Shown: positions 1,423-45,095 of the stretch, in pieces
How the letters are laid out: every line of letters begins with the position of its first letter
How positions within the stretch are numbered: the first letter of the stretch is position 1
Origin: an uncultured Acidobacteriota bacterium
GTDB taxonomy: Bacteria > Acidobacteriota > Terriglobia > UBA7540
Direction: 5' to 3'
NCBI GenBank assembly: GCA_963804995.1
Contig: CAWDSK010000001.1
Location: forward strand, 96,001 to 160,000
Length of the DNA: 64,000 nt
Program-made: the position numbers and the translations under genes
Notes under the pieces: generated by a model
The model's input: the letters and a program-made list of their open reading frames with translations, nothing else
Databases searched by the model: none
What the model was told of the DNA's origin: nothing

Positions 1423-3342
<1,920 letters not shown>

Positions 3343-3371
3343 CCACGCTTGGATACTCTAAAGGAATTGCC

Positions 3372-3401
3372 GGAAGGGCGGCGCTGAAGCCCCGCCCTTC
3401 C
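3372..3401. repeat. REP-like GC hairpin
   Basis: GGAAGGGCGG..CCGCCCTTCC perfect 10-bp inverted repeat just downstream of the intron. Confidence 0.6.
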
Positions 3402-3554
3402 AAACCCGTCGTGAGATATCCGGGCTAGCTGGGATGGCTTCAATCCTTTTATCGCGCGATACCTGAAGTGGAGGATAGAGCTTTTATCGATTAGGTGAGA
3501 AAGCAGCAGATGCGGCGACTCTTGCTGCAAGACAGCATCTGAAAATGAATCGGT

Positions 3555-4280
3555 ATGGTGACGGAACCTGTAACCCCCACTGACGAACTTACATACTGGG
3601 AAAGGGTAAATCTAACCACGAAGTGGGGCCGCTATTTGACCGAAATTGAGACCCGTACGGTTGTCTCGGCAACCAAAACGGCTGGCGGCCCCGGAACTGT
3701 ACTCGAAATTGGCACTGACGGCGGACGATGGTCCGGGGCTCTAATGAATCAGGGGTGGAAAGTCATCTGCACCGATGTTCGGCCCGAGGCCCTGGAGATA
3801 TGCCAACGCAGACTGCCGGGGGCGAAATGCATTCTTGTAAGACCAACAGATACGAGCTTGCCCTGCGCCACAGACACCCTAAATTTGGTTCTTTGTATGG
3901 AGGTTGATGCGGTAACCAGTTCTGAATGGTTCATCGAGGAAGCTTCGCGAGTTCTGACGGCTGGCGGGATCCTGGTGGCTACGATAAACAATAGGTCCTC
4001 CCTTAGAGCTGCCTTTCACGAGGCGTTCAGGCCCGGTGACGCGATCACAAGAAAAGAGCTGGGATTCTACCAGATTAGCTATCGTGACCGTAGAACGAGG
4101 CTCTTGCGATGTGGATTCGAGGTCATTCATGAGGAAGGCTGCTGCTGGTCCCCATTCCCACGCGATAGCAACTCTTTCCTCGTACCCCACTTTGTGCGAT
4201 TTGAGAAATATTTAGGCCTCAGGAGACTGACGAGCCTTAGTCCTTGGGTTGTCTTTGCGGCCCAGAAGGGACAGGCCTAG
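3555..4280 (+). CDS. Class I SAM-dependent methyltransferase
   Basis: VLEIGTDGG motif I; RVLTAGG-type post-motif. Confidence 0.8.
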   Translation: MVTEPVTPTDELTYWERVNLTTKWGRYLTEIETRTVVSATKTAGGPGTVLEIGTDGGRWSGALMNQGWKVICTDVRPEALEICQRRLPGAKCILVRPTDTSLPCATDTLNLVLCMEVDAVTSSEWFIEEASRVLTAGGILVATINNRSSLRAAFHEAFRPGDAITRKELGFYQISYRDRRTRLLRCGFEVIHEEGCCWSPFPRDSNSFLVPHFVRFEKYLGLRRLTSLSPWVVFAAQKGQA

Positions 4281-27016: not shown

Positions 27017-29092
27017 CTATGTAGTTGAAAAACCTAACTTCCTTTGTTCAGACGTTGATATTGCGGGTCCCCGATTGCTGCCACGGACACGCGCGACGAA
27101 CTTTGCTGCGGCTTCTGTCTCCAGTGCACGCTGGCTAAAAACCCAGGGCCCATCGGCAAGGGGATGATCGGCTTCAATCTCGCCTCGTTCCACCGCCAGG
27201 CGGAGCGTCCGGGAACTCACGCCTAAGATGCAGGCCGCTTCCGTCAGGTTCATCCATTCTTCCGACTCGCCCCTGTCGATCGAGTGACCAGGAATCGCGT
27301 GATGACTGCGTAGTGAGGTCACCCGTTCCCGCGTCCAGCGATTACCTCGCCCAGTCAGTAGACCGCTCCGATTTAGCGCGCCGGCCAGCTGATCATCCGA
27401 ACAGATCCGCGCCAATACTCTTACCGCCTCGACGGTCTCTTTCGAGGTGTGACTGCTATTCTGTCCACGCCGCCGCCGGGGTAAACGCAGGTCGGTGTGC
27501 ACGCCCCCCTTCCAGTGAATCATCAGAATGATTTCACCTGCCTGCGCATCCACATCGACGACGATCTCATGGATCAGCGTTCGTACAATGCGTTTTTTCA
27601 GGCGAATATCGGCTCCCGGGTCATTCCACACGGCTTCAAGGTCGGCCGCCAAGTTCTCGAATTCTTCCCGCGTGGGTGCAGCTGCCTGACCCTGGTCCTG
27701 GACGTGCTGTTCGATTCGTAGTTCGATTTCGTGCACTCGCTGCAGGGCTTGGTCCCAGCGACGCTCCAATTCTTCTGTCACCAAGCGGTTTTCCGGGTCC
27801 GCGGCATCGTACTGTTTCTGGGCACGCTGCGCGGCATAGCGTGCTGCCTCCAGATCTCGTCCCAGGGCCTCCAAGACCTCGTCGCGCTGACGCGCTTGTT
27901 CTTCGCTGGCCAGCACTGCCGCTTCTATCGCTGCCGGTTGCACGACCCGCACCACTTCCTTTGCCATGATTTCGTCAACCAGCCTTCCGCCAAAGGCGAT
28001 GCAACGCGCTTCGCCATTGTCCAGCCAGCCTCGACGGCACCCGTAGCGGAGCACGTCATGCTCGTTCCCCGTATACCAGACGGTCAGCTTACGACCACAG
28101 CGCCGGCAACGCAACAGACCGGCCAACAAAGCCGGACCACTTCGGACGGCGCCCGCTTGACCCCATCCGCGAACATTCTCCGCCATCGCCTGTTGAATCC
28201 GCTCAAACTCTTGCCAACTCACGTAACCTTCATGAGCGTTCGGAATCAACGCCAGCCACTGCTCCCGCGGTTTGCGCCGAGAACCTCGGCGGGGCTCGCC
28301 GTTTTCATAATGCAATGACAGTTCGGTCTTTCCGTACGCATAGGCACCGCCGTAGATCGGGTTGGCGAGCAAGCGGTGGATCGTGCCATAAGAAGGACGC
28401 TTCCAGCCTGTTTCACCTTGGGGGGTGTGCACCGGAAGCTGCAAGCCGTGTTCCAGGAACTACAACAAGGTCTGACGAACGCTCCCCAGCTCGAGAAATT
28501 TGTGAAACACCAGCAGGAGGGCTTGCTGTACCCGACGGTCGGGATCTTTTTCCAAACCTGACTCTTCGGTCTTGAGATAACCGACCGGTGCGGCCACCAG
28601 CAACTCGCCCCGGCGCGCCTTTTCGCGTCGTGCTTCCACCGAGCGCTGGCGCAGCAGGTCCAGTTCATATTCGTTCAGGCTCCCCTTCAGCCCCAACAGT
28701 AATCGATCGTTACTGTGCCGGGGCGAATAAACCGTCTCCTGGTCGATCAACACCGTATCGACGACACGGCACACTTCCACCAACTGCTGCCAGTCTCGGC
28801 TGTTGCGAGCGAAGCGGGAGACCTCTCGAGCGGCCACCGCTCCGACCTTGCCCAAACACACCTCCGCCACCATGCGTTCGAAACCGGCGCGCGTTACCGT
28901 CCCGGCCGCGGACCGGCCCAGGTCTTCATCCACGACCTCGATCTCGCGCCAGCCTAGCTGTGCGAGGCGTTCCTGCATGGCATACTGCAACTTCTGGCTT
29001 TCCAGGTTATGGCTGACCTGATAAGCCGACGACTGACGAACATACAGGATCGCCTTGCGTTCCAGATGCTGCGTTTTGATCTTGTCACTCAT
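27017..29092 (-). pseudogene. Large serine recombinase with an in-frame amber stop
   Basis: YVRQS catalytic motif, DEDLGRSA, EVSRFARN, LLANPIYGG, CRRC/YGC zinc ribbon, coiled coil; TAG at 28460-28462 (RQTLL*FLEHG) between two in-frame halves. Confidence 0.9.
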
Positions 29093-37027: not shown

Positions 37028-37677
37028 GGCGTTTTTCCTCACGGGAGTTTCACGATCGTCAACCAAAAATCTTCAACCGACTTCACAACCTGGACAAGAT
37101 GATGATTAACCCTCGCCACTCGTCCAAGAGAGGACACTCAGACTCTGTTAGATGCCGAGTGTGAAGGATTCTCAAACGCCGGGCAGCGGAGTTGATGTTG
37201 ACGCACTTCTTAACGATAATCAAGCTTCATACGTACCAATCCACTGCCATATATGTCTCTACTGTAGATTATGTAGAGACACCTAGAGGTTCGGGCGCTC
37301 AACGTACTGTCGAATACTCAATGTGCAGAATTGTGCCTGTCCCTGCTATCAAGATAAGCTGCTAGGCGGCGCCAGGAGGGTGCTAAGTCGGGGAAGGTCG
37401 TTACCGAGAACGAAGCATTCGGGGGATGACGAGTGAGCAGCCCAATCGCACCCTGAAACTCCCTTGGAGTTAATCCGACCCGCGAGGTGATCCAGCGTGG
37501 TCGCCAAAATCCCATTCCTTCTGACACCACGGGCGCGCCCTTAGCAGGCAGAGGAGGGTTGTTATGGCTAAGAGAAGCCAGCCTGCCGATTGGGCCCTCG
37601 CGGGAATCACCGGCGAGAATGCGGTTCTGGAATACGCCGCGAACCGCGATATCTTCAGCAAGCAGACGGAGGGTGTT

Positions 37678-38403
37678 ATGACGCCACAGAAGAGCCCGCC
37701 TGAGGTTGACATGGCCAATGGCAAAGGCAAGCCTCCACTTGCTACAGCAAGCGAGAAAATTCAGACCGTCGATTGGGCAGCATTTCTCGCAGGAATCTCG
37801 CGCGGAAAAACCGTTCTAGAATACGGCGCGGGCCGCACGATCTTCGTGCAGGGAGACCCTGCGGATTCCGTGTTCTATCTCCACCATGGCGAGGTGAAAC
37901 TCGCGGTGACATCCCAACAAGGCAAGGAAGCGATCGTCACCGTTCTGGGCGACAACGAGTTCTTCGGCGAGGGATGCCTGGCAGGCCAGCTGCTGCGTAT
38001 CTCAACGGCTATCGCGGTGAGCGATTGCACTCTTTACAGAATCGAGAAGGCGTTGATGGTGCGTTTGCTCCACGAGCAGCACGGAATCTCGGAATTGTTC
38101 ATCACGCACCTCCTTTCACGCAACATTCGATTTGAAGGGGATCTGGTCGACCAGCTTTTCAACTCCAGCGAAAAGCGCCTGGCCCGGATTCTCTTATTGC
38201 TGGCGCATTTTGGCAAGGAAAGCAGAACCGAAACGGTCCATCCCGGAATCAATCAGGAACACCTGGCCCAAATGGTCGGCACCACCCGGTCACGGGTCAG
38301 TTATTTCATGAACAAGTTCCGCACACTGGGCTTTGTCAATTACGCGGGCAGCGGCGAGTTGACGGTTAACAGTGGCCTCTTGAGCGTGGTCCTGAGTGAC
38401 TAG
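37678..38403 (+). CDS. Crp/Fnr-family transcriptional regulator
   Basis: FFGEGCL cNMP-binding fold; QEHLAQMVGTTRSRVS HTH; RBS GGAGGG. Confidence 0.92.
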   Translation: MTPQKSPPEVDMANGKGKPPLATASEKIQTVDWAAFLAGISRGKTVLEYGAGRTIFVQGDPADSVFYLHHGEVKLAVTSQQGKEAIVTVLGDNEFFGEGCLAGQLLRISTAIAVSDCTLYRIEKALMVRLLHEQHGISELFITHLLSRNIRFEGDLVDQLFNSSEKRLARILLLLAHFGKESRTETVHPGINQEHLAQMVGTTRSRVSYFMNKFRTLGFVNYAGSGELTVNSGLLSVVLSD

Positions 38404-38759: not shown

Positions 38760-39584
38760 ATGCGCAAATCGAAAGAGCCTAAAACACACTTCGAGCAGAT
38801 TCCGGTGGAGATAGTCAAAAAGATTGCGGAAGAAGACATTCCGGACGACGAAGAGAACGGACCCAACGTGACCGTCAAACCTCAGGTTGTCAGGGCCAAC
38901 GGCAAAGGCAAGCCCAGGCTTGCTGCAGCAAACGAGAAGACTCAGCCCGTCGATTGGACAGCATTCCTTGCCAGAATCTCGCGCGGGAAAACCGTTCTAA
39001 AATACGGCGCGAACCGCACGATCTTCGCGCAGGGAGACCCTGCGGATTCCGTGTTCTATCTCCACCAAGGCAAGGTGAAACTCTCGGTGACATCCCAACA
39101 AGGCAAGGAAGCGATCGTCACTATTCTGGGCCCCGACGAGTTCTTCGGTGAGGGATGCCTTGCCGGCCAGCTTTTGCGCATCTCAACGGCTATGGCGGTG
39201 ACGGATTGCAGTCTTTACAGGATCGAGAAGTCACTGATGGTGCGTATGCTCCACGAGCAGCACGGAATCTCGGAATTGTTCATCACGCACCTGCTTACCC
39301 GCAACATTCGATTTGAAGAGGATCTGGTCGACCAGCTTTTCAGCTCCAGCGAAAAGCGCCTGGCCCGGATTCTCTTATTGCTTGCGCATTTTGGCAAGGA
39401 AAGCAGAACCGAAACTCTCCATCCCGGAATCAATCAGGAACACCTGGCCCAAATGGTCGGTACCACCCGGTCACGGGTCAGTCATTACATGAACAAGTTC
39501 CGGACGCTGGGCTTTCTCGATTACACGGGCAACGGCGCGTTGACGGTTAACAATGGCCTCTTGAGCGTACTCCTGAGCGACTAA
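38760..39584 (+). CDS. Crp/Fnr-family regulator, tandem paralog
   Basis: Near-identical to the preceding gene from ANGKGKP onward; different acidic N-terminus. Confidence 0.92.
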   Translation: MRKSKEPKTHFEQIPVEIVKKIAEEDIPDDEENGPNVTVKPQVVRANGKGKPRLAAANEKTQPVDWTAFLARISRGKTVLKYGANRTIFAQGDPADSVFYLHQGKVKLSVTSQQGKEAIVTILGPDEFFGEGCLAGQLLRISTAMAVTDCSLYRIEKSLMVRMLHEQHGISELFITHLLTRNIRFEEDLVDQLFSSSEKRLARILLLLAHFGKESRTETLHPGINQEHLAQMVGTTRSRVSHYMNKFRTLGFLDYTGNGALTVNNGLLSVLLSD

Positions 39585-40165
39585 CATACGATAACCGGCA
39601 TAGGTATTACCGGCCCGCTTAGCCTCCCATCCTGAGGGGGGCATGGCGGAGCGAAGTATCTCGCTTGGAGGGCTGGTCGCGGTAGGGATACCGGTTGCCC
39701 GGTACCCTGTCCTTCGCCAATACACGATAATGCTGCATTCGCTGCAAAAGTGGCCGCCCAAAGACCGCAGTCTCCGCTTGTCGCTCTGTGCCTTGGTCTC
39801 TGGTCCGAGAGGTCATCGGGCTGGTCGCGCCTTTGCGCCGACAAGCACCCGCCTGGCGCGAGACAGGTTGCAGTTTTCGAGGTAAGGGAACGGCAGGCCG
39901 ATGCTGCCCTCGGTCAGGCAGCGCGCCGTTCGTAGCGATGGTGCAGGCCACCGACCTGCGGGATCTCCACCATCTCTCCGGCCTCCGGTCCCTGCACGAC
40001 CCGAGGGGTCGGAGCGTCCTTGGCTAAGGAGAGGTGAGTTCTTGAACCCAGATAGTAATCGAAATAACTTTTCAGGATTCGTCGCAGATGCTTCTCTCCC
40101 AGCACGATCACGTGATCCACGTACTCACGTCGGATGGAGCCCACCAGCCTTTCCGCAAACGGATT

Positions 40166-40458
40166 GGATCAGGTCGTCAACTACACACCATAGAGACTAT
40201 TCAAAACGACGTTTCCGAGTAACTCACCCTTACCATCCACTGTTCCAACGTGAATTCGAATGGGTGGACTACCGCCAGAACTGGGGGGAGGACCGAGTGT
40301 ATTTCTACGACGAAGGAGGCCAGTTGACCTCGCTACCGGCGCGGTGGACGAGTGTCGTGGGGGAGGACCCATTCGTGGTCATAGGGGGAGGCCGCTCGTA
40401 TTTTCGCGTTGAGGACCTGATTGAATTGGTGCGTTTGGTGGAGGGTTTACGGTCCTGA
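40166..40458 (+). CDS. Startless body of att-split DUF5372-like gene of element 2
   Basis: IRSSTTHH..FRVTHPYHPLF..NWGEDRV..SLPARWT..DPF..GRSYFRVEDL; no ATG before the motif inside the element; its ATG is at 43528. Confidence 0.8.
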
Positions 40459-40608
40459 AGCCCCGGAAGGTCTGTAAAGGGAATTACGCCGTTTGTGTTA
40501 AAGGGATTATGTCGGAGCTTGAGCCGAAGTCCAGAGTTTTCGGTGGGTGTGTGAGTGCAATATCCGCTTATTGTGCAACACAAATTCGGGTCGGAGGATA
40601 GAAAAGGC

Positions 40609-40637
40609 TTGACAGGGAGCAAGAGAATGTATATAAT
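40609..40637 (+). promoter_or_regulatory. Consensus sigma70 promoter
   Basis: TTGACA (40609-14), 17-nt spacer, TATAAT (40632-37); 41 nt upstream of the HTH gene. Confidence 0.9.
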
Positions 40638-40678
40638 TAACATTACACTCGTTTGCCGGATTTGCTCCGGAGGAGCCC

Positions 40679-41146
40679 ATGTCCCCTTCCTCACGCCACG
40701 ATGCCAAGCGCCATATCCTGCGCTCCCAAGGTACCTTGAATCCCCGCCCGCAGGAGGTGGCCCACGCCCTGTTCCAGGACAGCGACTTCTTCAATCCCCG
40801 GGACTTGCTGCAGGTCAAGTACGAGATGCTGCGCCAAGTGAGGGTCGAAAACCAAGCGGTGAGCCAAGCGGCGGAGGCTTTTGGTTTCTCCAGACCCTCC
40901 TTCTACCTCGCCCAGGCGGGCTTCGTAGCCAGGGGACTCGCAGGATTGATTCCCCAGAAACGGGGACCTCGGCACGCCCACAAGCTCACGGCCGAGGTAA
41001 TGGAGTTCGTCCGGCAGGCCCGAGCTGCCGAACCCTCCTTGCGGAGCGAGGAACTGGCGGCCCGGGTGAAGAAAGCCTTCCGTCTACGGGTCCATCCTCG
41101 CAGCTTGGAGCGCCGGCTTCGGCAGCAGCAAAAAAAACGACGTTGA
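40679..41146 (+). CDS. Helix-turn-helix protein of LSR element 2
   Basis: FFNPRDLLQVKYEMLR; VSQAAEAFGFSRPSFY HTH; KRGPR..HKL; VHPRSLER; RBS GGAGGAG. Confidence 0.88.
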   Translation: MSPSSRHDAKRHILRSQGTLNPRPQEVAHALFQDSDFFNPRDLLQVKYEMLRQVRVENQAVSQAAEAFGFSRPSFYLAQAGFVARGLAGLIPQKRGPRHAHKLTAEVMEFVRQARAAEPSLRSEELAARVKKAFRLRVHPRSLERRLRQQQKKRR

Positions 41147-41448
41147 GCGACCCTCCCGTTGCTCCCCTGATGGCCCAGGAGGGGATCGTAAACCAATATG
41201 AGGAACTCCGGCGACAAGTGCGGGGTGAGTTAGGCGGCAGGCGCGGAGCCTTGGGCCTGGCGCTGTTTATTCGCCAGGGGATGAAAGGCTGGATGGAAGC
41301 CTGGTCCCACTGCCTGCCGGGTGGGATTCCGATGAAACCCCAGAATCCGTCCGGCCCTGAGGAGAGGGTTCCTCTCGATCTGCACACGGAAGTGGTTACG
41401 ATTCTGGCGAGCATGGTACTTCACAGTCGGCCGGAGGTGAGAGGATGA
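41143..41448 (+). CDS. Small accessory ORF (possible -1 frameshift extension of the HTH protein)
   Basis: YEELRRQ..GLALFIRQGMKGW..ILASMVL; TTGA overlap upstream and ATGA overlap with the recombinase. Confidence 0.7.
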   Translation: MSDPPVAPLMAQEGIVNQYEELRRQVRGELGGRRGALGLALFIRQGMKGWMEAWSHCLPGGIPMKPQNPSGPEERVPLDLHTEVVTILASMVLHSRPEVRG

Positions 41449-43538
41449 GAACCGAAATGCCGCAGAAGGTTCAAGCCCACCATTTGAAACGCGACGCCTA
41501 CCTGTATATCCGGCAGTCCACGCTTCGGCAGGTCTTTGAGAATACCGAGAGCACCCAGCGCCAGTACGCGTTACGCCAACAGGCCGTGGCCCTGGGCTGG
41601 CCTTTGGAACGGATCATCGTGATCGACAACGATCAAGGCCAGTCGGGAGCTTCGGCGGTAGACCGAGAGGGATTTCAAAGGTTGGTGAGTGAAGTGGGGA
41701 TGGGGCGAGCAGGGATCGTTCTGGGTCTCGAGGTGTCGCGCCTGGCGCGCAACTCCACGGACTGGCATCGACTGCTGGAGATCTGCGCGCTCACCGACAC
41801 GCTCATTTTGGATGAAGATGGCATCTACGACCCGGCGCACTTTAATGACCGCCTGCTGTTGGGGCTGAAAGGCACGATGAGCGAGGCGGAACTGCACGTG
41901 CTGCGAGCCCGGTTGCGAGGCGGAATCCTCAGCAAAGCTCGGCGCGGTGAGTTGGAGATCCCACCTCCGGTCGGCTTGGTCTATAACGGCTCGGGGCAAC
42001 TCGTTCTCGATCCGGACCAGCAGGTGCAACAGGGCCTTCGACTCTTGTTTGAAACCTTCCGTCGTACGGGATCCGCCCTGGCCACGGTGAAGGCCTTTCG
42101 CCAGCAGGGGCTGCTGTTTCCCCGCCGCCTGCGGGCGGGGCCCCACCAAGGAGAGTTGGTATGGGTGGAACTTGTTCACAGCCATGTCCTGCGCGTTTTG
42201 CACAATCCTCGGTATGCCGGGGCCTACGTCTTTGGCCGGAGTCAGACGCGCAAGAAGCTGGAGGGTGGCGTGACGGTGAAGTGGTTGCCTCGCGAGGAGT
42301 GGGACACTTGCCTTCCTGGGGCCCATGCGGGTTACCTCTCCTGGGAAGAATATGAGAGCAATCAGCGGCGGTTACGGGAATCCGCGCAAGCTTGGGGTCC
42401 CGACCGTCGTCAAAGCCCTCCGCGGGAAGGTCCAGCGCTTCTGCAGGGATTAGTGATCTGTGGCCGCTGTGGGAATCGGATGACCGTGCGTTATCATGTT
42501 CACCGGTCACGCCTGGCCCCCCATTATGTGTGTCAGCGGTACGGTATCGAACACGCTCAAACCATCTGCCAGACGGTTCCTGGAGCGGGTATCGACCAGG
42601 CCATCGGGGAACTGCTGATCGAAGTGGTCACTCCGTTAGCCCTGGAGGTGGCGCTGAGCGTGCAGCAAGAACTTCAGTCTCGTTGGGAAGAAGCGGATCG
42701 GTTGCGCCAAACCCAAGTCGAGCGCGCCCGGTATGAGGCGGAGCTGGCCGAGCGGCGCTACTTGCGTTGCGATCCCGACAACCGGCTCGTGGCGGATTCG
42801 CTCGAGGCCGACTGGAACCACAAGCTGCGTGCTCTGGGAGAGGCTCAGCAAGAGTATCAACGTCAACGTCAGGTCGACCGTGGGTTGTGTCGGGAAGAGG
42901 AACGCGCTCAGATTTTTGCCCTGGCCACAGACTTCCCTCGGCTGTGGCGCGATGCGAAAACGCCACATCGAGAACGGAAGCGTATGGTCCGCCTTCTATT
43001 GGAAGACGTCACGTTGACCCGCAACCATGAGATCACGCTTCAGATCCGCTTCAAGGGGGGAGCTACAAAGACCCTGCATTTGCCCATCCCCCTCAATGCC
43101 TGGAAACAGCGCACCACCAAGCCGGAGGTGGTGGCGGAGATCGACCGGCTCCTGGATCAACGTACCGATCGGCAGATCGCTAGCCTGCTGAATGAACGCG
43201 GCTGGCTCTCGGGCGAAGGCAGGCCCTTCAGCCCTCACATCGTCGCGCGCATACGGCGTAACTATGCCTTGAAGAGCGGTTACACTCGCCTACGCGGAGC
43301 CGGCCTGTTGACCCTGCAAGAGATGGCTAAGCTGCTCGGCATCTCCACCGGGTGGGTGAAAGTCTGGCGGGACCATGGTCTGTTAAGAGCTCAAGCCTAC
43401 AACGAGAAAAACGAGTGTTTATATGAACACCCCGGCGATGATCCGCCGCGCAAGATGCAAGGGACGAAGCTCGCTGCCAGGCAGCGATTCTTCGAGGACC
43501 CCTCGAATCATACCAATGAGGTGCAGTATGAAGCATAA
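41445..43538 (+). CDS. Large serine recombinase, apparently intact
   Basis: YIRQS, DNDQGQSG, EVSRLARN, LHNPRYAG, CGRC/YVC zinc ribbon, coiled coil, C-terminal HTH; 697 aa. Confidence 0.95.
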   Translation: MRTEMPQKVQAHHLKRDAYLYIRQSTLRQVFENTESTQRQYALRQQAVALGWPLERIIVIDNDQGQSGASAVDREGFQRLVSEVGMGRAGIVLGLEVSRLARNSTDWHRLLEICALTDTLILDEDGIYDPAHFNDRLLLGLKGTMSEAELHVLRARLRGGILSKARRGELEIPPPVGLVYNGSGQLVLDPDQQVQQGLRLLFETFRRTGSALATVKAFRQQGLLFPRRLRAGPHQGELVWVELVHSHVLRVLHNPRYAGAYVFGRSQTRKKLEGGVTVKWLPREEWDTCLPGAHAGYLSWEEYESNQRRLRESAQAWGPDRRQSPPREGPALLQGLVICGRCGNRMTVRYHVHRSRLAPHYVCQRYGIEHAQTICQTVPGAGIDQAIGELLIEVVTPLALEVALSVQQELQSRWEEADRLRQTQVERARYEAELAERRYLRCDPDNRLVADSLEADWNHKLRALGEAQQEYQRQRQVDRGLCREEERAQIFALATDFPRLWRDAKTPHRERKRMVRLLLEDVTLTRNHEITLQIRFKGGATKTLHLPIPLNAWKQRTTKPEVVAEIDRLLDQRTDRQIASLLNERGWLSGEGRPFSPHIVARIRRNYALKSGYTRLRGAGLLTLQEMAKLLGISTGWVKVWRDHGLLRAQAYNEKNECLYEHPGDDPPRKMQGTKLAARQRFFEDPSNHTNEVQYEA

Positions 43539-44391
43539 GCCTTTTGCCAAGGGCTCTGCGGCGCGGTCAGGACTTCGGTGATGTCCATGTCGCTGAGAAG
43601 ATTGCGGAAACCTTCCCCGTAGATCTGGTCCCGGTCTCGGATCAAATAGCGTGGCGCCGTGTCTTCGGGGAACGCTTCCAGGATTTGCTGAGTGGCCCAA
43701 GCCGCCGTCGGATGCTCGGTCACGTTGAAATGCACGACACGCCGGCGATGATGAGCCAGCACGACAAAAACGAATAACACTCGAAAACTGACCGTGGGCA
43801 CCGTGAAGAAGTCAACCGAGACCAAACCCTGAACATGGTTATTCAAGAAGGCCTTCCAAGTCTGGGAAGGTGGCTTCCGGCACTTGGGCATCAATCGGGA
43901 AACCGTGCGCTCGGAAACCTCCATTCCCAGCTTGAGCAGTTCCCCGTGAATGCGAGGGGCGCCCCAATACGGGTTCGCGGTCGCCATCTGCTTGACCAGG
44001 GCTCGGACTTCTGAACTGAGTTGTGGTCGACCTGAACTTCCCCGCTGCGAGATCCTCGCCCAATAGATTCGGAAGGCCTTTTGCTGCCAGCCGACAACAG
44101 TATCACCGTTCACCACATGCAAGGCCTGTCGCCAAGGGGCCCAGACTCGGGAAAGCACCACCCAAAACAATCGATCTTTCCTCTTCAGTCTCGGCACGCC
44201 CTTCCTTCTCTTTAGCACTCCCAGCTGTTGTCGCAAAGCCAGATTTTCCAAGGCCAAGTCACGGCGTTCTCTAAGAGCTGCAATTATGAAAATGACCAGC
44301 CATCGTAATGTCTCGATCATGGGTTGGAGTGTGGAGGTAACGACCTGAATAATCAACGGATTTCGAGCCGATGGAGTTTTGGCGATGGACA

Positions 44392-45095
44392 GCTGGCTCG
44401 AACGAGCGACCTGGGGAAAGTATCTCCTGATCCCGCCTGACCAGGGGCCGGACGCCCTGGGCGACAGCAATCTCTTGGCCCTCGCGAGCCGTATCACTAG
44501 CCGGTACTACTTCGGCCTCGGCACCGCCGCAGCGCACTATGGGCTGACAACTCAGCACCGCAACGTGATCTTTGTTGTAACGCCGCAGCGCCCGCGCGCG
44601 CGCACCGTCGGAGAATCGCGGGTCCGGATCGTCAATCAGGCGGAGAGCAAGTTCTTCGGATTTGAGCCGGTCGACGTGCTCGGCTACAAGGTGATGATCT
44701 CGGACCGCGAAAAGACTGCCATCGACTGTATTGATCACCCACCACTCGCCGGAGGCGTGGGGGAGGCCGCCACCATTCTTGCCACCGCGACTCGCCGCTT
44801 CGACTGGAACAAAGCTGCTGATTACCTCGAACGGATAGGCACCGGCGCGCTGGTGCGCCGATTCGGCTGGCTGGCCGACCACGTCAAGGCGGATATTCCG
44901 CCCTCCACACGCGAGCGCCTGCTCAGGTTGGCGGCGCGAAGCCGCAAAACGTGGCTCGGCGCCGCTCCCGAACACGCTATGCCGGGCGCAATCGGTTATG
45001 ACGAGACATGGCGCCTGTTCGTGAATGTTTCGCGCGAAGAGCTGCAAGGCAGCGTCGGCCTCGGACAGCGGAAAACGGTCAGGGGAGGTGCGTAG
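44392..45095 (+). pseudogene. AbiEi-like antitoxin/regulator, 5'-truncated
   Basis: WLER..GKYL, TAAAHYGLT, KFFG, ISDREKTAIDC, RRFGWL; begins directly at the IS end. Confidence 0.75.

Follow-up and report, generated by a model that had tools for sequence, protein, structure and literature searches.

A DUF5372 gene split between the ends of a large serine recombinase element and predicted to be whole only on the excised circle

Some mobile elements tie the expression of a gene to their own topology. In the Clostridium transposons Tn4451 and Tn4453, which are moved by the recombinase TnpX, the joint of the excised circle reportedly forms a promoter for the recombinase gene, as Lyras and Rood are said to have described in 2000. 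Here we compare with these and other excision-dependent switches an element found in a stretch of 64,000 nucleotides (the whole of which is called the window in the following) from an uncultured bacterium of the Acidobacteriota (assembly GCA_963804995.1, contig CAWDSK010000001.1, positions 96,001 to 160,000 of the forward strand). To judge from its sequence it is an insertion-sequence (IS)-like mobile element of a four-gene type that is moved by a large serine recombinase (LSR). One of its genes, encoding a protein of the DUF5372 family, is divided between the two ends of the integrated element. We show the anatomy and the ends of the element, its empty target site and the conservation of the split among relatives. 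The best explanation, and one that we consider quite probable, is that the split gene is whole only on the excised circle and that its protein is a circle-state signal which binds the LSR and sets the direction of recombination.

Like Tn4451 and Tn4453, this is a small LSR-moved element with, presumably, a circular intermediate and circle-only expression. Unlike in Tn4451, the promoter is internal and complete, and what the joint would assemble is the coding frame of an accessory gene. A circle-junction promoter of the kind known from Tn4451 and IS911-type elements, in which the -35 and -10 hexamers are joined across the ends, was not found in this family: the best sigma-70-like matches spanning the in-silico circle joint reached 6-8 of 12 positions, and in 0/70 elements did such a match reach at least 9 with the hexamers astride the core.

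Genes that contain the attachment site attP are known from other elements. Passages of PMC8371274 describe 'suicidal' tyrosine integrases of the SSV1, pTN3 and pT26-2 type, reported there only from archaea, in which attP lies in the integrase gene and integration splits it, and they liken this split to directionality control. As in the SSV1 type, attP would here lie within one of the element's own genes, which integration splits and which is intact in the free form. Unlike in the SSV1 type, the serine recombinase stays intact when integrated, the split gene is that of a small partner protein, and only a Shine-Dalgarno sequence, the start codon and four codons are removed. In the immunity system of mycobacteriophage BPs, which has a phage tyrosine integrase, integration is said to remove the 3' end of the repressor gene, with both forms of the protein being made. 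In our element, unlike in BPs, it is the 5' translation signals that are lost on integration, and no product is to be expected from the integrated form. For BPs and its relatives, PMC4557955 places attP inside a regulatory gene whose product is not the same in the free as in the integrated form. In ICEclc (promoter Pcirc) and ICEKp1 (promoter P3'end), excision brings a promoter across attP to an intact integrase gene, according to passages of PMC13023037. Excision would likewise set a signal from one end of our element before a gene at its other end; the difference is that a ribosome-binding site and a start codon would be fused in frame to a start-less gene.

No split gene among these systems belongs to a serine-recombinase element, and in none of them is a partner protein deprived of its translation start. 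We found no published description of this switch, in agreement with an earlier note on this DNA that knew of none, and regard it as a variant of the known excision-dependent switches. Our literature search found no paper naming DUF5372 and nothing relevant on the y4b/y4p gene names (see below), on start codons at serine recombinase junctions or on insertion into transposase genes. Passages of a recombinase survey deal with multi-targeting enzymes carrying DUF4368 and not with the DUF5372 element family (PMC10083194).

Element ends and the split DUF5372 gene

The genome to which the window belongs (7.55 Mb in 9 contigs) carries four copies of the element, which are 99.3-100% identical, have the same ends and lie in four different flanks. 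All four start with TT-GGATCAGG and end with GCATAAGCC-TT, the dinucleotide TT being present at both ends in 4/4 copies. Near-identical copies at four sites point to recent movement within this genome. The empty target site was found on contigs of 4/4 peat-metagenome runs, where position 40163 is joined straight to position 43542 with 3378 bases skipped and a 2-base ambiguity. The ends and the 2-bp crossover core, which the earlier note had proposed, are confirmed independently by the genomic copies and by the empty-site contigs. The co-varying cores at the two ends of related elements, described below, lend further support to the element boundaries.

The left end of the integrated element carries the body of the DUF5372 gene (Table 1). 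Its product matches PF17342 with 79.9 bits against a cut-off of 25, with residues 19-96 covering profile positions 1-78 of 78. Codons 1-19 are the translated P' arm of attP and a linker, and codons 19-96 make up the Pfam domain. It had been noticed that no ATG precedes the HPYHP motif of this reading frame; we found that GTG and TTG are missing as well, no in-frame start codon of these three kinds lying between the crossover and this invariant H-P-x-H-P motif in the window element. The missing signals are found at the right end, where the Shine-Dalgarno sequence GAGGTG (43518-43523) and an ATG (43528-43530) overlap the last codons of the recombinase gene, just as the earlier note had described. 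The recombinase stop codon TAA lies at 43536-43538, and the ATG begins 11 bases before the end of this codon. In the integrated state, the ATG reads only a 17-residue peptide that runs into the flank. Joined in silico through the shared TT, the two ends give an open frame of 5 + 97 codons, the 102-aa frame foreseen in the earlier note, in which the right end contributes the Shine-Dalgarno sequence, the ATG and four codons, and the left end the other 97.

Integration at attP, within the 5' coding region of DUF5372, would split the gene, and excision to a circle of 3378 bp would rejoin it. The order on the circle would be the promoter at 40609, the genes for the helix-turn-helix (HTH) protein, for open reading frame 2 (ORF2) and for the recombinase, and then DUF5372 across attP. 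DUF5372 would be the last cistron, translationally coupled to the recombinase, and the disordered N-terminal tail of its protein would be encoded by attP itself. The promoter, previously called perfect, does agree with the consensus at every position, and 50 shuffles of the promoter region gave a mean of 0.9 promoter-like sites. A promoter matching at least 10/12 positions is present in 41/42 related elements, 110-185 bases after the DUF5372 stop, and no terminator-like site was found on the + strand of the element. From this arrangement we infer that DUF5372 is expressed from circles.

Conservation of the split among relatives

A scan of species-representative genomes gave 492 loci encoding relatives, and a scan of metagenome contigs, seeded with a subfamily whose called proteins begin with 'MTGPVRITHP', gave at least 471. 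From each scan 80 loci were kept, which together with the window made up a comparison set of 161 loci. Ends were anchored by the left-arm motif on the left and by a 25-letter consensus on the right, with at least 18/25 letters matching. Both ends were found at 86/161 loci; the others had too little downstream DNA (54/161), no right-end motif (16/161), no left-arm motif (3/161) or a left end off the contig (2/161). The 86 two-ended loci represent 73 distinct end pairs, and the core is equal at both ends in 70/73 (TT in 66, TA in 3 and CG in 1).

When the matching-core pairs were joined in silico, a start codon in frame with DUF5372 and followed by at least 80 open codons resulted in 70/70. The start stands five codons before the core, as ATG in 38 and as GTG in 31 elements. 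In the remaining element (L013) the usual RTG-AAG reads CAG-GTG, and the start is shifted to four codons before the core. A Shine-Dalgarno-like GGAG, GAGG or AGGA lies within 14 bases of the start in 69/70, and the distance from core to domain is in phase in 73/73, with only two length variants of +2 and -3 codons. The same in-frame start in all relatives with matching cores is far beyond chance. The proposal of the earlier note that the gene is intact and last in its operon only after circularisation is supported by this comparison, and the frame between start and core, which might have been random across elements, is constant.

Three end pairs with unequal cores were left out of the count: L012 (TC/TT), which is out of frame if the nearest TT is used, L055 (AC/TT), and L037, which has a truncated left end and a spurious 19/25 right-end motif. 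All three are probably dead or truncated copies. Among 27 loci of the first set without right-end motif, no complete element with a different right end was found; 16 were short of downstream DNA and the rest truncated or too diverged, except L015. This locus has intact ends; some 1.5 kb of DNA inserted in its recombinase gene (about 2060-3595 after the core) has pushed the right-end motif (25/25) out of its usual place, and we read it as an element nested within an element.

Several observations weigh against a translation start that awaits excision. The right-end motif doubles as the P arm of attP, and part of its conservation and its fixed spacing would be expected without a coding role. attP consists of two inverted half-sites. 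In 68 elements the positions at which the two arms are alike lie 1, 2, 15 and 17-22 bases from the core, and GGTGCAGT of the right arm, 22-15 bases to the left of the core, has its mirror image in ACTGCACC 15-22 bases to the right; this mirroring accounts for the conservation of S-T-A-P residues in the N-terminal tail of DUF5372. The 70 elements share ancestry, so their number overstates that of independent events. In linker codons 9-18 the third position does not stand out from the others (entropy 1.13/1.15/1.24). An in-frame ATG, GTG or TTG is present between core and domain in 8/42 elements, gene callers and RefSeq place starts within the domain or at its border, and some database DUF5372 proteins, available as protein sequences only, have their initial M in 'MSNAP' or 'MAP', directly behind the core. 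The circle itself was not encountered. A degenerate (IUPAC) pattern of the circle junction, which fits 27/45 in-silico junctions, had 0 matches in metagenome and viral contigs, the 24-base circle-junction word of the window element had 0 occurrences in its own genome, and no back-joining joint was among the joints listed for contigs of the four runs. Assembled contigs lose rare forms, and a circle joint missing from them is for this reason not evidence of absence. The right-end motif stood directly upstream of DUF5372 at 0/160 of the kept loci.

A further observation of this kind concerns a single copy of the element. In the copy near position 885918 (G000:C6; protein P0001), the flank supplies an in-frame ATG two codons before the core, which is the antisense of Pro-Tyr codons of the target. 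This copy alone among the four might make a DUF5372 protein while integrated.

The symmetry of the arms, the linker, the internal and the annotated starts and a phase that could be inherited among related elements would also agree with a different explanation, namely that the in-frame start is a by-product of the geometry of the P arm and that DUF5372 is translated while integrated, from an internal or non-canonical start or from the first codons of the domain. We consider this quite unlikely. Conservation confined to the right arm is seen at positions 8-14 (RTGAAGC) and 23 (the A of GAGG), counted from the core (68 elements), which argues for a constraint on the right end beyond the symmetry of attP. 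The first base of the start, A or G in 69/70 with a GTG one codon on in the other, alternates between Tyr and Cys codons in the recombinase frame, but between two start codons in the frame of DUF5372. The recombinase stops five bases before the element end in 35/42 elements, and the right-end motif is kept in the 7/42 in which it stops elsewhere; in four of these seven the recombinase stop overlaps the start as RTGA and the last codons are read as another frame. Within the 19 codons after the core, frame 0 has stops in 0/42 elements, whereas the other two frames have them in 25/42 and 36/42. With a linker entropy that gives no coding signal, the coding case rests on this contrast in stops and on the indels of +2 and -3 codons, which keep the phase. 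The window element, as said, has no start before the invariant motif, and where internal starts exist they are not conserved, contrary to the possibility that homologs carry starts of their own: the GTG chosen by gene callers in the 'MTGPVRITHP' subfamily, which has the same gene split, is GCG or TCG in other members.

A RefSeq copy on a plasmid record (L165) is annotated as an ordinary 'DUF5372 family protein' that starts 57 bases after the core codon. Among the N-termini of database DUF5372 proteins (P0001-P0120), some are derived from flanking antisense transposase DNA and others begin at internal GTG or ATG codons that are not conserved. Relatives were found on 131 plasmid records, mostly of Sinorhizobium and Rhizobium, and on 0 of 50,697 phage records. 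One database source names a homologue 'Y4bD/Y4pK family protein'. The y4bA-y4bD and y4pH-y4pK sets of the rhizobial plasmid pNGR234a, which we take to be a four-gene repeat with a recombinase, are probably the same four-gene element, of which RefSeq annotates the pieces as unrelated ordinary genes.

Table 1. Coordinates of the element, its genes and sites, and the flanking target fragments in the window
Feature	Position	Strand	Basis or description
Left flank: 3' fragment of the interrupted transposase gene, residues after the W-Q-N motif	39914-40163	-	ORF 39914-40144, in-silico flank joining
LSR mobile element	40164-43543	+	3.38 kb, IS-like, four genes on one strand
TT crossover dinucleotide, left copy (attL core)	40164-40165	+	copies, empty site, core co-variation
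DUF5372 gene body, 97 codons and stop, start-less	40165-40458	+	Pfam PF17342
attP P' arm including the outer inverted-repeat motif ACTGCACC, 15-22 bases from the core	40166-40189	+	symmetry table, 68 elements
Sigma-70-type promoter of the HTH-ORF2-LSR operon	40609-40637	+	TTGACA-17-TATAAT, 12/12 match
HTH protein, 155 aa	40679-41146	+	Pfam HTH_32, HTH_29, HTH_28
A8 run at the 3' end of the HTH gene	41130-41137	+	candidate -1 frameshift or transcriptional slippage site
ORF2, about 100 aa, conserved	41143-41448	+	conservation in 25 elements
LSR, 697 aa	41445-43538	+	Resolvase, Recombinase, Zn_ribbon_recom
attP P arm: Shine-Dalgarno sequence, start and first DUF5372 codons	43518-43541	+	motif GGAGGTGCAGTRTGAAGCRTARNCC before the core in relatives
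TT crossover dinucleotide, right copy (attR core)	43542-43543	+	copies, empty site, core co-variation
Right flank: 5' part of the interrupted IS481/IS3-like transposase gene	43544-44497	-	Pfam HTH_32, HTH_21; rve below cut-off

Predicted recombinase partner and direction of the switch

The LSR shows Pfam scores of 67.6 bits for Resolvase, 53.4 bits for Recombinase and 38.4 bits for Zn_ribbon_recom, all above cut-off, and is laid out as catalytic domain, recombinase domain, zinc ribbon with an inserted coiled coil, and C-terminal extension. Its mean column identity across 25 elements is 75%. An AlphaFold2 model of the DUF5372 protein (pLDDT 77, pTM 0.60) shows an SH3/KOW-like barrel with C-terminal helices and a disordered stretch of the first eight residues. 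Searches with this fold gave no Foldseek match at E <= 0.001, and the best VIA-align hit (Z 4.9) was generic SH3/KOW-like.

We predicted the complex of both proteins from our own alignments of 25 recombinases and their 25 partners. The LSR-DUF5372 pair scored 0.72 in three runs, against 0.00 for the best of 3 controls; the mark used for this score was reached by 116/157 solved complexes and by 2/215 mismatched pairs, counts that are rough for a prediction made with our own alignments. At least 72% of the contacts are shared between runs, and the pLDDT of the partner is at least 71. The predicted interface comprises zinc ribbon residues 338-343, the coiled-coil base at 394-413 and 480-518 and a strand at 533-541 on the LSR, and residues 22-26 and 68-96 on DUF5372; many of the interface residues are invariant in both alignments. 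Going by this model, DUF5372 most likely binds the LSR at the junction of zinc domain and coiled coil, and the role in directionality that the earlier note had suggested gains support from the predicted position.

Verified recombination directionality factors (RDFs), although unrelated in fold, bind the junction of DBD2 and coiled coil and often add a strand to the sheet of the domain, according to passages of PMC12286644 and PMC11722253. DUF5372 would resemble the RDFs of SPbeta, of phiC31 (gp3) and of LI/A118 in that it is a small protein of no conserved family that is predicted to sit at the junction of DBD2 (the zinc domain) and coiled coil and to extend the sheet of the domain. On the other side of the balance, the complex score is a measure of model confidence and could in part reflect LSR-RDF complexes that the predictor has learned.

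It seems very improbable to us that DUF5372 is made from circles and acts elsewhere, for example on the promoter at 40609 or on HTH-ORF2, with the predicted complex being a false positive. A generic barrel, the few mismatched pairs that passed the rough complex test and two other uncharacterised potential partners encoded by the element would allow for it; the separation of the pair from its three controls, the consistent contacts, the interface residues that are invariant in both families and the translational coupling of the gene to the recombinase on the circle speak for the recombinase as the target. DUF5372 probably tells the recombinase which state the element is in, and would act at the zinc-domain/coiled-coil junction as a circle-state signal that sets the direction of the reaction.

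The sign of this effect is a guess. A factor at the RDF site that is made only from the circle misfits the phage paradigm, and this too counts against our explanation. Known LSR RDFs are encoded by ordinary prophage genes that are expressed when integrated and trigger excision, whereas DUF5372 would be made only after excision. Such circle-only expression would argue against the canonical sign of an RDF, which stimulates attL x attR and inhibits attP x attB recombination. DUF5372 could nevertheless be a canonical RDF whose gene is split, made from a rare first circle, excising sibling copies in trans and blocking re-integration; integrated copies would then be locked for lack of the factor, by analogy with the archaeal elements with split integrases. 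We regard this as unlikely. The predicted binding site is that of verified excision factors as presented in passages of PMC12286644, several copies per genome could respond in trans, and in the archaeal case, integrated copies with split integrases are locked and can be freed by a related incoming element, as passages of PMC8371274 describe. With a canonical RDF, however, neither state would complete the cycle alone, as there would be no excision without the factor and integration would be inhibited with it, and four near-identical copies show that the element has moved recently. Circle-only expression in other transposons also reportedly serves integration.

If a canonical excision factor appeared only once the element had been excised, the circle and the integrated form would both be trapped, and the copies have nevertheless moved recently; for this reason we tentatively favour, as possible rather than probable, a DUF5372 protein that favours or licenses integration of the circle and prevents its immediate re-excision. 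This would parallel the circle-only boosts of other transposons.

The remaining genes of the operon may bear on how an excision-competent state is maintained. The HTH protein resembles the N-terminal DNA-binding part of IS630/IS481 transposases, with NCBIfam matches to the IS630 and IS481 N-terminal models that are below cut-off. ORF2 had no Pfam or NCBIfam match and no usable match in an ESM Atlas search. Its stop overlaps the LSR start as ATGA in the window and in 18/25 elements. The A-run at the end of the HTH gene is present in 25/25 elements (as A7 in one), and ORF2 lies in the -1 frame in 21/23; between the run and the conserved motif of ORF2 a start codon is absent in 8/23, while 15/23 have some start. 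The run looks like a candidate site of IS3/IS1-style frameshifting or slippage that would yield an HTH-ORF2 fusion. The C-terminal extension of the LSR comprises about 140 residues (about 560-697), with a weak HTH_17/MerR-like match at 621-660 that is below cut-off. Passages of PMC12286644 raise the possibility that such extensions take the place of a directionality factor.

These features could be combined into a self-reporting directionality switch of reversed polarity, in which a circle-only protein turns an excision-competent or bidirectional recombinase into an integrase, within an element that is also a parasite homing to transposases. This fuller reading is rather doubtful. With the recombination site in the 5' end of the gene for a protein predicted to bind where RDFs do, making that protein would report directly whether the element is a circle or integrated. 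Until then, the co-translated HTH-ORF2 product or the LSR's own C-terminal extension might keep the recombinase excision-competent, and integration would split the gene and reset the system.

Insertion target and significance

The element of the window interrupts an IS481/IS3-like transposase gene. Joined in silico, its flanks read P-W-Q-N-P-F-A-E-R, which places the TT crossover in the codons of the conserved W-Q-N motif. In the right flanks of all four copies the match to the NCBIfam IS481 model ends at position 228-229 of 284 and that to the IS3 model at position 269-317 of 369, with all scores below the family cut-offs. All four copies of this genome (the window and L166-L168) are inserted at the same position of the transposase profile. 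Among 68 distinct insertion sites of related elements, the joined flanks encode x-x-x-[N/K/R]-x-x-x-E-[R/S] at 44, the conserved motif that surrounds the catalytic glutamate in DDE transposases. One subfamily inserts in another conserved target, TT followed by CG..TCGA. The element family homes to DNA encoding the catalytic motif of transposases and therefore disrupts other insertion sequences; a family that homes to this motif would live as a parasite on mobile elements of other kinds. In the own genome of the window element the host insertion sequence has no intact copy, and the natural attB was for this reason taken from metagenome contigs. Logos of the 68 reconstructed insertion sites were too mixed to place the zinc domain on attB.

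In the neighbourhood of the element, tandem paralogous Crp-like regulators are encoded just upstream at 37564-38403, with cNMP-binding and HTH_Crp_2 domains, and at 38760-39584; their C-terminal two thirds are near-identical. A match to the AbiEi antitoxin C-terminal domain (32.1 bits) at 44379-45095 lies beside the interrupted transposase gene and shares part of its 5' end. A second, unrelated LSR gene on the - strand at about 28175-28525 has a Recombinase domain (59.7 bits), one in-frame TAG and no DUF5372 partner, and is presumably what the earlier note called 'LSR element 1'.

For annotation, our findings mean that database DUF5372 proteins carry arbitrary N-termini. The control of direction in transposon-like serine recombinases is an open question, for which the LSR and DUF5372 are a directly testable pair, and tools for recombinase-based memory and for genome insertion could draw on a compact module of 3.4 kb that combines a recombinase, its cognate partner and a built-in reporter of its state. 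The family is widespread and inactivates transposases of other insertion sequences. If the proposed switch is true, it would be a third way to tie gene expression to the topology of an element, beside junction promoters and split recombinase or repressor genes. It would also be the first of its kind among serine-recombinase elements and the first to involve a partner protein of the directionality type.

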